A model generated the notes under the pieces. The model saw only the letters and a program-made list of their open reading frames with translations, was not told the DNA's origin and searched no databases. Shown in pieces: positions 7,094-37,505 of a stretch of DNA of 64,000 bases (the first letter of the stretch is position 1; every line of letters begins with the position of its first letter). The DNA is from Candidatus Bathyarchaeota archaeon (GTDB lineage: Archaea; Thermoproteota; Bathyarchaeia; Bathyarchaeales; Bathycorpusculaceae). The stretch covers positions 160,001-224,000 of the forward strand of contig CAVYXJ010000012.1 of NCBI GenBank assembly GCA_963772455.1, given 5' to 3'. The translations under genes were made by a program, and so were the position numbers.

Positions 7094-7561
7094 TTAAATG
7101 CTGCCGGAAATTACTATGTTGAAGTCGAAATCGGATATGTCGCCTGTGTCAGCAGCTACGTTTAACGTGAGTGTTGCGGGTACTATGGCGCCTGCTTGGA
7201 GTGTGGCGCTTTCTTTATTCCACGTTAAGAATAGGCTTGACGTGGCGGATGGTGGATTTCAATCTTTGGCAGTCATGCTTAGGGTTTCAGTTATGTTGCC
7301 TGTATTTTTGACGTAAATTGTTTTTGTGGCAACGAATGGCGTAATCAGTGTACCCCAATCAATATTTGAGCATAATGTTGTGGCTTGCGAGTCACTGTAG
7401 ACACTTATGTTAACTGTGTTGGTTGTTATACTTCCGCCTAGGTGACCTTGTGCTGGGATGTTTTGTTGGGCGTTTAATATTCCTGCTGTTACTACTGAGA
7501 GTGCTATTGCAATGAAAACTAGGGTTATGAGTGGGATTATTGCTGCTTTTTTTAGTTGCAT
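7094..7561 (-). pseudogene. Secreted TasA/CalY-like protein with an in-frame TGA at a Trp position; paralog of 61955-62404
   Basis: The frame continues after TGA (7259-7261) as NPPSATSSLFLTWNKESATLQAGAIVPATLTLNVAADTG, which aligns with the paralog's WNPSNANTYLTLTWN...QATLTLTAAANTG. Confidence 0.7.
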
Positions 7562-7748: not shown

Positions 7749-8024
7749 TCAAGTGTCAAGAATCGCTTTTAATTCGCAATCAGGCGTGTAAATGATTACG
7801 CCGTCGGGATCTTCTTGTACGGATAAACTACGTTTTTTGGCAACTTCTCTAACCTTTTGTTTGTCTGTTTCAGGAATTATTCCTTTAATGTTGATGCGGT
7901 AACCAACTGAATCGCTGTCATTTGGGGTTTCAAAAGAGACGCATTCAGGCGATAAGTCATTGCATTGGCTCAGAAGCTCTTTTAAGTAGATGATTGCCTC
8001 TGATCTATCCAACGGAATCCCCAA
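7749..8024 (-). CDS. Small hypothetical protein, DRxEA family
   Basis: LDRSEAIIYLKELL N-terminus; similar to the genes at 9485, 18584 and 19015. Confidence 0.7.
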   Translation of the reverse strand: MGIPLDRSEAIIYLKELLSQCNDLSPECVSFETPNDSDSVGYRINIKGIIPETDKQKVREVAKKRSLSVQEDPDGVIIYTPDCELKAILDT

Positions 8025-8267
8025 TTGTCTCTTTCTTGTCTTTTAATATAAAAGGTTTGCACAAACATTTCCATATAATTAGCAGCGTTTTGTTTCATTT
8101 GCATGGTAAAGATTGTTACGTACGTATCAAAAATGTGTCTAACCGTAAAATTTTATAGAAAACTTATTTGATACCTGATCAAAAGGCGATATTTGAAGTT
8201 CAGCAGCTTAGCGGTTGTGATTTCAAAGTGTAATCACATTGTTTTATATTTTTGAGACAGCTAACCA

Positions 8268-8400
8268 GTTGGTAGGAATGCAAGGGATAGCCAACAAAAG
8301 TTGAGCGAATCCGGCTGCTAAATAAGGAAAGGCCGTTGCCCACCTACCCTTTTGGCCTAACCTGTTTGGCGTATGGCTTGGTTCGCTTAACTCTTCATTT
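8268..8400 (+). ncRNA. Candidate structured ncRNA (long rod hairpin plus pseudoknot)
   Basis: TTTATAT box at 8243-8249. Stem AGTTGAGCGAATC(8299-8311)/GGTTCGCTTAACT(8380-8392) is extended by further G-U-rich helices. Loop CCTACC is complementary to 5' GGTAGG. Confidence 0.55.
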
Positions 8401-9484
8401 TGGGTTGTCTGAAAAGCAATTTTAACTAATTTTTGTAGCGGTAGATTTCCAATATCAGGACTTTTTATTAAATTTGCATAAAAGAAAAAATGTTAAACTA
8501 TTCATAAACGATGTTTTGCGTCAGATTGCGCAACATGATAAAGCCCCTTTCACACTGTCAAAAGCCCAACAGCGATAACTGTTGAACGTTAAACGTTCAT
8601 ACGCTAACAGCACAACGCTAAAAGCTCCTCAAATCATCCGCATTTCAGCGTTTAACGGAGAAATTTTGCTCGTTTCGCTTCGACTTTGGATGTTAAAAAG
8701 TGCGAAAATTCTGGATGTTCGTCCGATTGATAGCGATACTGAAAACAGAAACGATGTTATGCTTTTGTGTCGCAATCTGAAAGCAATAAGCTATTTTTAG
8801 ACATCTCAACAAATTGGAAACATTATGTGCTTCAACTATCGCAAGGTTACATTTTTAATCTGGTTGATTGCAACTTTTAATGCTAATGGCCTATTTTTCT
8901 CGCTATTTCTAAAGACTTATTGCTTAAACTAAATTTTTTCTAACTACTGTTTGAACCTCTTAACGAAGACTAATGACCCAAAACTGATAGTAGTCATTCC
9001 TGCTAGTGAATAGCAGTGAGAAAAAAGATTACCTCGCGCGTATTAAGAAAAAGAAGCCTGAGCCCATTTCCATAAAAATTCCAACGGATTAGGAGAACGC
9101 TTCGGATTGATTATTGTTAAACCCGGATACTGAAGAATTAAATGGAACAAAAGGTGAAAACGATTTGAAAGATGAATGGTTCACTGAAAAAAAAATCAAA
9201 GACCGTTCACCATGGGGCAAAAGAGAGTTCAGCCTTCGATTTACCGGCGATGCGCGTTAATTTACCGTATTTTAGGCTGAAAAAACGTCCGATTTCACAT
9301 TTTGAGGTCGGGCAAGAATTCCTTTGCATTCTTCTTTATGGTATTATTCGATCTCAGACTGCCAGGGCCCCCGGTGACTTCTGTCGTGGTTTTCCCCGCA
9401 GGTATTCTGCAAAGAATCTTAATTGCTTTTTTGGTGGTTTAACAAGCAAGCTTTAAATTGCTTAAGTACACACAAGAATAACCT

Positions 9485-9720
9485 ATGAATCGCCAGGAAA
9501 CAGTCTCCTTGCTAAAGGAAATGATAGCTGTTTGTGGGTCATTCTATGATGCTCGAGCAGTATCCGTTCAAAATGGTGGGAACAGTGATAATTTGGGAAC
9601 TCTCATGTTTACTGGGTTCCTAATCCCTCAGATATCGAATGTATACAAAAAATACTTGCTGAACACATTTTAGAAATGGTTACTATTAACGGACGCTCTG
9701 TATTTCGGTCGAAAAAATAA
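9485..9720 (+). CDS. Small hypothetical protein, DRxEA family (frameshift near 9592)
   Basis: MNRQETVSLLKEMI..., continuing in another frame as WELHVYWVP...RSKK*. Confidence 0.55.
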
Positions 9721-9847
9721 ATTCAGTTATAACTTTAAAATTCTTCTTGCAATTCTTGCATGTGTAAGCTTCAATGTTGAAGACCTGATTTGTAAGCGAT
9801 TTGTGGGGTTTCGCCACTTCTTCACCACAGCTTGGACAACTAACCAT
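9686..9847 (-). CDS. Zn-ribbon protein resembling Cren7-like chromatin proteins
   Basis: Manual translation MVSCPSCGEEVAKPHKSLTNQVFNIEAYTCKNCKKNFKVIT (two CxxC); below the ORF-track length cutoff. Confidence 0.6.
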   Translation of the reverse strand: MVSCPSCGEEVAKPHKSLTNQVFNIEAYTCKNCKKNFKVITEFIFSTEIQSVR

Positions 9848-10147
9848 GCAAACTCTCCAAAGTTAGAATAAACTAATGATCTGTGATAAAAGTATTAGAT
9901 GGTTTGTTGGCACATATTGAAACAACAAACAAAACTGGTGGAAATTAAATTATAATGGAAGATTTGAGGTTCAAAAAGGGTTTGTACGCTCAATCAATTT
10001 ATTAATTAACCTCTAAGATAATGAGTCTAAGTCACTTGTTTTTGCAGAGGATAAGATCATGTAAACAGAATTTGATATGGGAGTTCTGTTGGTGAGTTGT
10101 TGGTTAGTTTTGAGTTATTGTTTGTTCTTCTTGGTTTGGAATAACCA

Positions 10148-36914: not shown

Positions 36915-37505
36915 TTTAAGCGAAAAAGACATTCAAATTTAGGCAGTTAGTTTCGCTTTGTTTTTCTGGTCCCAATGCTCAGGTATTCTCGACCAAAACA
37001 AGAGACTCTTTACTTTAGTCTATCTGGATGTTGGCAAACGTTGTCAGGAGAATTCTTCGGAATCCTCATGCGCTTCAATTTGAAGAAGGATTACAACGAT
37101 TACATTTCTCGAGACATCATGAAAAAAATTAGTAGCAGCTAATGTGTAACTATTAGAGTTTTGTTGCCCCATTCGAGCATTCCACCTTTTTCATAAGAAT
37201 TTTCTTAACTGAATCAATGTTGACTTAGAAGTTTTTTGAGCGGACCTACATACGCTATTAAAACGCGAACATCCGAAAAGATACGTTGCTTACATACCGT
37301 TCGCGTCCAGTTTAGCGCTGATCCGCCAAAAGCTAATTGACATTAGCTATATTTTGGATAAATAACTTTGTGACTGGAAACCAACAGCTACAAGATTTTT
37401 TTTCTTAGTCCCTTTTGTTGGTGGAGACTTACACAAACAAGACAATTAATGTTAGAAATTAAATATGTTCTTCTATTGAAGAATGAGAGGAGGTTTTAGG
37501 GTTTA

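Follow-up and report, generated by a model that had tools for sequence, protein, structure and literature searches.

What is encoded between positions 8243 and 8401 of the 64,000-nucleotide (nt) stretch of a Candidatus Bathyarchaeota genome analyzed here (contig CAVYXJ010000012.1, positions 160,001 to 224,000; this whole stretch is hereafter called the window)? An earlier note had proposed that this region holds a promoter-bearing RNA of about 130 nt, transcribed from the plus strand, with a long G-U-rich rod, a loop complementary to its own 5' end and no recognizable kinship to known RNA families. Given the comparative evidence described below, we are highly confident that a structured non-coding RNA of about 130 nt, with the predicted secondary structure, is encoded at 8243-8401 by a gene of its own. 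The predicted RNA spans about 8272-8401 of the plus strand, and its core is a 92-nt rod (8300-8391). The parts of the gene are as follows.

8229-8241, plus strand: upstream promoter element GTAATCACATTG, directly 5' of the TATA box, semi-conserved across an alignment of 17 copies
8243-8249, plus strand: archaeal TATA box TTTATAT, of which the letters TTATA are invariant in 17/17 aligned copies
8272-8283, plus strand: predicted transcription start (about 8271-8274, from the TATA centre at -26/-27) and short 5' leader
8284-8295, plus strand: mini-hairpin P0 with the loop GAUAG, followed by AAC; pairs G8284-C8292 and G8285-C8291, in near-invariant columns
8300-8391, plus strand: unbranched rod P1, the family core, identified by fold z score, covariation and a match to the hairpin-only model R2 (E 8.8e-20)
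8299-8311/8380-8392, plus strand: basal helix of 13 base pairs (minimum-free-energy fold)
8312 versus 8379, plus strand: C/U mismatch in the minimum-free-energy fold, a U-A pair in many members
8313-8316/8375-8378, plus strand: invariant GGCU/GGCU segment (G-U, G-C, C-G, U-G), with the same pair in 41 to 46 of 47 sequences
8371-8374, plus strand: 4-nt bulge on the 3' strand, GUAU here and CAUG, CAAG or CACG in paralogs, followed by the invariant GGCU
8317-8327/8361-8370, plus strand: mid helix (minimum-free-energy fold)
8330-8335/8353-8358, plus strand: apical stem (minimum-free-energy fold)
8336-8352, plus strand: pyrimidine-rich apical loop of 17 nt, UUGCCCACCUACCCUUU, with CACCU in common with the 3' end of 16S ribosomal RNA (rRNA)
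8392-8401, plus strand: variable 3' tail and T-run (8398-8401, invariant columns; the preceding 6-10 nt vary)

The minimum-free-energy fold of 8299-8392 is a single unbranched rod, as drawn in the earlier note, with an energy of -41 kcal/mol compared to -25.0 +/- 2.8 kcal/mol for 200 dinucleotide shuffles (z -5.65), none of which (0/200) folded as well. With the unstructured flanks included (8271-8405), the z score of the fold is only -1.35. The minus strand of the rod yields a z score of only -0.20, which is consistent with the argument in the note that the non-canonical pairs favor an RNA over a DNA cruciform: conserved pairs are often G-U on the plus strand (for example, GU in 41/47 and UG in 41/47 sequences) and would become A-C mismatches on the opposite strand, which points to a plus-strand RNA. 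When the hairpins of individual members were folded one by one, 67/69 turned out to be unbranched, with apical loops of 17 nt (median) that consist of 38% C and 39% U; the description of the loop as anti-Shine-Dalgarno-like in the note is thus supported.

Homologs from related genomes supply the covariation that had been proposed as a check of the rod. RNAalifold predicted 28 pairs, 12 of them compensatory; for 60 diverse hairpins, the consensus comprised 22 pairs, 14 compensatory, with the 4-nt bulge kept. Over a larger alignment of 50 sequences (47 distinct rows), which was fitted to the rod model and favors the rod somewhat, pairing reaches 96.9% and 85.8% in the two main helices. The observed covariation of the 47 distinct sequences was reached in 0/500 column shuffles, and shifting the 3' partners by 1-3 columns reduces the pairing from 82% to 26-56%. 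Independent MAFFT alignments, analyzed with RNAalifold, agree with the model-fitted pair count. Next to the rod, the near-invariant 5' motif GAAUGCAAGGGAUAGCCAAC (8276-8295) includes P0, whose two pairs are 92.9% paired over 28 distinct paralogs and are represented by GC, UA, CG and AU, a count that leans to structure because the alignment was fitted to the model. Within the apical loop, UUGCCCACC is conserved in the main subfamily; the 16S rRNA of the source genome ends with GGAUCACCUCCU.

The arrangement of the conserved parts is that of a gene. Along the 17-copy alignment, the semi-conserved upstream element is followed by the TATA box, a variable spacer, GAAUGCAAGGGAUAGCCAAC, the covarying stem, the loop UUGCCCACC and the invariant T-run. 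Both the TATA box and GGTAGGAATGCAA (8271-8283) lie where the earlier note had placed them; the stretch of about 22 nt that separates the TATA box from approximately 8274 varies freely among the copies, and conservation sets in at about 8275. The upstream element, which in many paralogs takes the form GTGACAACAT(C)A, was found again before 28 paralogs in three genomes and is not present as a motif upstream of the transfer RNA (tRNA) genes of the same genome; it is probably a B recognition element or a regulator site. The T-run, which corresponds to the U-rich end pointed out in the note, is probably a terminator. The sole open reading frame (ORF) across the element is a 47-amino acid (aa) frame on the minus strand (8200-8343), so that, as the note had it, no credible coding sequence is present. 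The locus combines a TATA box, a T-run, a covarying structure and the lack of a credible ORF, as is characteristic of stand-alone archaeal small RNA (sRNA) genes, with transcript ends that are predicted.

The extent of the family was explored with two covariance models, R1 for the main family search and R2 for the hairpin only. A blastn search of the assembly itself yielded a second copy with 85% identity, and copies were detected by blastn in 10/24 genomes of the same genus and in 0/16 genomes of other families. The model searches identified 4 copies in the genome of the window (G000), the window copy included (R1, R2), and R1 matched 96/120 genomes of the genus (59/73 among the good-quality genomes), with at least approximately 350 matches in total and at least 10 in some genomes. 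In a sample of 151 genomes from the class, R1 matches were confined to three genomes of this genus, that is, to 1/79 genera, with 0/78 other genera matched. In a sample of 151 genomes from the order, R2 matched 7/12 genomes of the genus besides G000, but none of 23 genomes from further genera of its family and none of 115 genomes from other families (62 other genera). Each of the two samples thus covered about 140 genomes outside the genus. These large searches use strict filters, so the absence outside the genus means that the RNA was not found in the genomes searched. Finally, 185,579 species genomes were screened for an exact 16-mer and then examined with R1, which produced 16 strong matches, of which 11 are on records of Candidatus Bathyarchaeota or Bathyarchaeia archaeon, 3 on records labeled 'uncultured archaeon' and 2 in a Methanocella-labeled metagenome-assembled genome (MAG). 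The latter two, on two contigs (L070 and L105) of one MAG titled Methanocella sp., are clear members with 105 and 73 bits; the label or the binning of this MAG may be wrong.

Three genomes contain at least 10 copies each, and all these paralogs keep the promoter (often TGTGACAACATCATTTTATATT), the lower rod (GUUGRGCGGGUYUGGCUGCUAAC ... GUUAGCRCAUGGCUWRRUCCGCUUAAC), the pyrimidine-rich loop and the T-run. The 5' regions of the paralogs, 25-50 nt in length, fall into different subfamilies, and the rod is common to all; all subfamilies carry P0 and an (A/G)GYCC-AAC element beside the rod.

Several individual loci deserve mention. One RNA copy (G000:C9:177516-177655, plus strand) lies divergently to the only 16S rRNA gene found in this genome (G000:C9:175231-176724, minus strand), approximately 800 nt upstream of it. 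Locus L250 (G001:C4:12000-31000) harbors three RNA copies within 13 kb of one another, together with pieces of a family-B DNA polymerase spread over three neighboring ORFs, an ORF resembling an ATP-dependent DNA ligase and large uncharacterized ORFs (all named by reading the ORF sequences), and could be either an integrated element or a variable island. In the window itself, a second rod-like hairpin at 37232-37336 on the minus strand (-39.2 kcal/mol, z -4.14) has a lower stem, GGCGGAUC...GGUCCGCU, and a one-sided bulge that resemble those of the RNA family; it matches the hairpin model weakly (E 0.027, 21.8 bits), has blastn matches in only 2/18 other genomes of the genus, and may be a very divergent relative of the family or a separate RNA.

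Does the RNA belong to a known class? No Rfam 15 model matched anywhere in the window at gathering scores, in agreement with the failure of the earlier note to recognize a family; at E<=10, the region 7900-8800 contained only two unrelated weak matches, both outside the element, and ARAGORN detected no tRNA or transfer-messenger RNA in the window. A T-loop reading of GGUUCG on the 3' strand was discarded given that this stretch belongs to a covarying helix and is GGUCCG in relatives. At the bulge, no flanking G-A pairs of a kink-turn were seen, and a bulge-helix-bulge substrate or circular RNA precursor was rejected since the bulge is on the 3' strand only and the opposite 8312/8379 positions pair in many members. 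No gene for TnpB, IscB or an IS110 transposase recurs within 1.5 kb across 70 loci of the family, which speaks against an omega RNA, reRNA or bridge RNA; here, transposase domains were scanned with Pfam among the window proteins only, and at the remaining loci ORF length and sequence served as the guide. A full-text literature search, judged on titles and the openings of abstracts, turned up at that level no paper on non-coding RNAs of Bathyarchaeia, which are abundant uncultured archaea. With neither an Rfam match nor a published account at this level, the RNA appears to represent a new family of stand-alone structured archaeal sRNAs. Unusual features of this family are the many paralogs inside a single genus and the linkage to an uncharacterized protein family. 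It adds a well-supported structured RNA family with several hundred members, a candidate for a new Rfam model, and marks a lineage-specific regulatory layer, or a selfish module, in soil archaea.

What might such an RNA do? From its anatomy alone, we tentatively consider it to be a trans-acting regulatory sRNA, a reading that seems plausible and falls short of a firm prediction; more broadly, a trans-acting regulatory or ribonucleoprotein (RNP)-forming sRNA is our best guess. Under the regulatory scenario, the covarying rod would serve as a stable scaffold, probably protein-bound, and the working surfaces would be provided by the single-stranded parts, which are constrained in sequence. The C/U-rich apical loop, similar to the anti-Shine-Dalgarno end of 16S rRNA, could pair with purine-rich sites, such as the ribosome-binding sites of messenger RNAs (mRNAs), and the 5' module, which differs among the paralog subfamilies, would endow each of these with a distinct specificity or partner. 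Targets, regulatory effect and a possible protein cofactor are all inferred from this layout. In support of such a role, the single-stranded parts are constrained in sequence, as seen in the near-invariant 5' motif, the loops with 77% pyrimidines (67 members) and the subfamily-specific 5' regions. A precedent is provided by the Staphylococcus Rsa RNAs with the UCCC motif and RNAIII, 'sibling' base-pairing sRNAs with C-rich loops. Like these, the Bathyarchaeia RNAs are stand-alone genes with their own promoter and terminator, with several paralogs on a shared scaffold and with anti-Shine-Dalgarno-like pyrimidine loops. Unlike the Rsa RNAs and RNAIII, they have an archaeal promoter, a 92-nt rod that surpasses a terminator hairpin by far in length and conservation, as well as a conserved mini-hairpin and bulge that suggest protein recognition; there is no sequence relationship between the two groups.

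Several results weigh against this proposal. Relatives of the element, 80-99% alike, are partly covered (within 8227-8404) by contigs from four metatranscriptome runs (X14, X16, X17 and X18, each from a different study), but these contigs extend into unlike flanks, into the promoter, past the terminator or into adapter; because they run beyond the ends of the RNA, they may represent DNA carry-over or read-through and so are no proof of transcription or of the ends. Small word shares were also seen in DNA runs from soil, peat and sediment and carry no weight here as to habitat. The target searches were likewise unfavorable. For three G000 copies, the pairing of the 5' region with 16S and 23S rRNA does not exceed that of 20 shuffled versions each; the 20-nt 5' motif has 2 non-self complements in the genome at no more than 4 mismatches, where approximately 2 are expected by chance; and ahead of ORF starts, complements of the loop show no enrichment (25/106, compared to 18-34 per 100-220 for control 7-mers). 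None of the loop, the tail and the 5' region prefers the start of the neighboring small-protein mRNA over non-cognate ones: the mean duplex energies for cognate versus non-cognate starts are -10.8 versus -10.4 for the loop and -11.9 versus -10.6 for the tail, and the cognate start ranks anywhere from 1 to 17. In addition, P0 is a small structured element and not a linear seed, so that recognition by a protein fits at least equally well.

The main rival to a regulatory sRNA is a module of two genes, of which the second lies next to the RNA in the window.

7749-8024, minus strand: gene for a small uncharacterized protein (core of about 78 aa; TTG at 8012 as the probable start), divergent to the RNA gene

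According to this explanation, the RNA is the partner of the ~78-aa protein, either in an RNP, in which the GGCU/bulge part of the rod and P0 would be the binding site, or in an addiction, toxin-antitoxin-like or selfish pair whose genes spread and duplicate jointly, with solo copies being remnants or acting in trans. We regard this as possible, and rather unlikely on balance. The protein family, recognizable by the signature M-D/N-R-x-E-A-x-x-Y-L-K-E-L-L ..., is the commonest neighbor of the RNA, being encoded within 1.5 kb at 21/70 loci. In five genomes, 9 of at least 43 listed RNA genes (at least 10 in three of these genomes) are located no more than 300 nt from one of 41 protein genes, compared to about 0.13 such pairs expected under random placement. 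The pairs come in four arrangements, namely divergent (approximately 180-280 nt apart), convergent (0-85 nt) and same-strand at 68 and at 182 nt, and particular RNA subfamilies match particular protein subfamilies. Both families are multi-copy and lineage-restricted. The protein is present in 107/120 genomes of the genus, including all 96 with the RNA, and across these 96 genomes the copy numbers of the RNA and the protein correlate (Spearman 0.50), a co-occurrence and a correlation that are both confounded by genome kinship and genome size. The protein is missing from 13 genomes; 11 of these are listed without an RNA match, and the other two (G024 and G135), not being among the 96 matched, are placed likewise.

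Other observations speak against a partnership. Most copies are solo: among the matches listed in the five genomes, 34/43 RNAs and 32/41 proteins lack an adjacent partner, and G097, with at least 10 RNAs and 4 proteins, has no adjacent pair. The protein occurs without a detectable RNA in 11 genomes (nine listed as such; G126 and G132 placed by their absence from the 96 matched). At 12 protein loci without a known RNA neighbor (8 in genus g1 and 4 in other genera), a search with the filters off detected no RNA match, the best E being 0.19. The co-occurrence could stem from one subclade that lacks both families, and related genomes are not independent observations. The protein has no Pfam match (as part of the scan of the window proteins), and its sequence, read by eye, does not look basic, which also counts against a partnership. 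The AlphaFold2 model, with a predicted local distance difference test score of 81.6, consists of a helix, two strands, a helix, two strands and a helix, from which a soluble alpha/beta domain is predicted. In the Foldseek comparison of this model with PDB, nothing was found at E<=0.001, and the best hits of VIA-align wide (Z 7.2) are common permuted ferredoxin-like arrangements (EpsL, PilO, ACT, HAD caps) that are uninformative; this ordinary fold is a further point against a partnership. ESM Atlas matches are limited to 'hypothetical protein' clusters of Bathyarchaeota, and a profile search with the family retrieved 572 cluster representatives at E<=0.001, all of them small proteins.

A classical type I toxin-antitoxin system was considered separately and rejected, given that no cognate-specific complementarity to the start regions of the mRNA was observed and the protein is predicted to be a soluble alpha/beta domain. 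Type I systems with a divergent or convergent sRNA include tisB/istR-1, zorO/orzO and txpA/ratA. The present pair is similar to these in that a small protein gene lies beside a small RNA gene, in divergent or convergent orientation, in multiple copies and in a lineage-specific manner, and differs in that the protein is a predicted soluble domain of ~78 aa rather than a short hydrophobic peptide and that most copies are unlinked. The shape of the RNA is also reminiscent of 6S RNA and Y RNA, which are long imperfect rods with conserved irregularities and act via a bound protein, not by long antisense duplexes; unlike these, the Bathyarchaeia RNA is shorter, lacks a central bubble resembling an open promoter, has many divergent paralogs per genome and matches no Rfam model.

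A bolder combination of the two families can be envisaged, in which the rod would be the scaffold, the exchangeable 5' module the specificity element and the ~78-aa family the protein of a new archaeal RNP system, with an expanding, genus-specific collection of RNA-protein modules, be it as an RNA-guided regulator or as an addiction- or defense-like pair. We consider this unlikely; if true, it would be an RNP system without a counterpart among the described archaeal RNPs. The two uncharacterized and statistically linked families form a concrete RNA-protein pair that is open to in vitro work.

Compared to a regulatory sRNA, a guide RNA seems quite improbable. In this reading, a protein would bind the rod as a scaffold, and the variable 5' region would direct an RNA-modifying or nucleic-acid-targeting enzyme by antisense pairing. 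The common rod and the 25-50-nt 5' regions that differ among paralogs are compatible with such a division of labor, and the 5' region is conserved across species inside a subfamily, as would be expected with a conserved cellular target. However, complementarity to rRNA does not exceed that of shuffles, genome-wide matches are at the chance level, much of the 'variable' region is not a free guide given that P0 and (A/G)GYCC-AAC are present in all subfamilies, and no gene for a nuclease or modification enzyme recurs across the 70 loci. The two established archaeal guide classes were examined individually. Box C/D sRNAs contain C (RUGAUGA) and D (CUGA) boxes, a kink-turn and guides of 10-12 nt to rRNA or tRNA; neither the sequence nor the family alignments reveal these boxes. 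In H/ACA sRNAs, a hairpin with a large internal pseudouridylation pocket carries a K-turn or K-loop higher up in its stem, and the ACA box follows on the 3' side; here, the rod is almost fully paired with a one-sided 4-nt bulge only, and the 3' tails are variable, with no ACA in a fixed place. The resemblance to both classes consists in small size, multiple copies and, if the proposed scaffold role is correct, a protein-binding scaffold with variable regions; the differences are that no boxes or pocket are seen, that rRNA complementarity is not above shuffles and that the Rfam snoRNA models do not match.

Still less probable, in our assessment, is a DNA-level repeat or small mobile element with a hairpin that has no function as RNA. 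Three G097 copies that are 99-100% identical over approximately 180-240 nt, a unit that includes the TATA box, the RNA and 20-80 nt beyond, in unrelated flanks, could be interpreted in this manner, as could the location of several copies near contig ends (within approximately 300 nt). However, the ends of the shared tract differ among the three G097 pairs and no terminal inverted repeats or target duplications were seen, so that gene conversion or local duplication fits better than transposition. Only one strand upholds the pairing through G-U pairs and compensatory changes, the promoter and the T-run are conserved at fixed positions, and none of the 16 IMG/VR loci that contain exact 16-mers (5 loci) or 17-mers (11 loci) of the family includes a family member.

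The gene neighborhoods make a cis-acting leader, attenuator or riboswitch of a downstream gene highly improbable. One candidate for such a gene encodes tryptophanyl-tRNA synthetase (TrpRS), which starts 47-363 nt downstream on the same strand at 11/70 loci, and the apical loop contains CCA. All 11, however, represent one orthologous locus, and the window copy has no TrpRS gene downstream, where an insert of approximately 1.7 kb (8405-10093) is found relative to L041 and L043. Among the 70 loci, 38 are followed most closely by a co-oriented ORF of 100 aa or more and 25 by a convergent one, and 7 have no such ORF downstream (32 convergent or absent altogether); the gene families involved vary. 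With a position relative to the downstream gene that is not constant, neighbors that differ among the copies and a conserved T-run of its own, the RNA is better described as a stand-alone gene.

The last alternative, a pseudoknotted and possibly self-cleaving ribozyme, is likewise highly improbable: the complementarity between the loop and the 5' end reported in the earlier note (GGUAGG/CCUACC and GCAA/UUGC) is present in the window copy but is not conserved in the family, where the pseudoknot helices are just 58%, 63% and 75% paired, compared to 86-97% for the rod, with 9 to 23 of 47 sequences unpaired at each pair, the GGTAGG arm sits in a variable stretch at or before the predicted start, and no Rfam ribozyme family matches. 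The competing hairpin GTTGGT/GCCAAC, also described there, relies on this same variable stretch, and the paralog G000b does not preserve it.

Besides the ~78-aa protein and TrpRS, the recurrent neighbors within 1.5 kb at the 70 loci include a pilin-like protein. In the window, a small protein encoded at 7259-7561 on the minus strand contains an N-terminal hydrophobic segment resembling a class III signal (MQLKKAAIIPLITLVFIAIALS...) and has no Pfam match; at 8/70 loci, this protein or its homologs (L002, L003, L039, L041-L043 and L047) recur upstream of the small-protein/RNA pair. The segment 8405-10093 is missing from L041 and L043, in which sequence matching 10094 onward begins approximately 170 nt after the RNA; it lacks a long ORF between 8420 and 9485 and includes a truncated small-protein paralog at 9485-9673 (plus strand) and a zinc-ribbon ORF at 9686-9847 (minus strand). 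Finally, repeated sequences were noticed among the tRNA genes of G000: three tRNA-Ala(CGC) genes (C1:9836-9911, C4:23682-23757 and C20:81149-81224) have identical 60-nt upstream sequences, and the upstream sequences of two tRNA-Arg(CCT) genes (C10 and C17) are near-identical, which suggests repeated segments or redundant contigs in the assembly.

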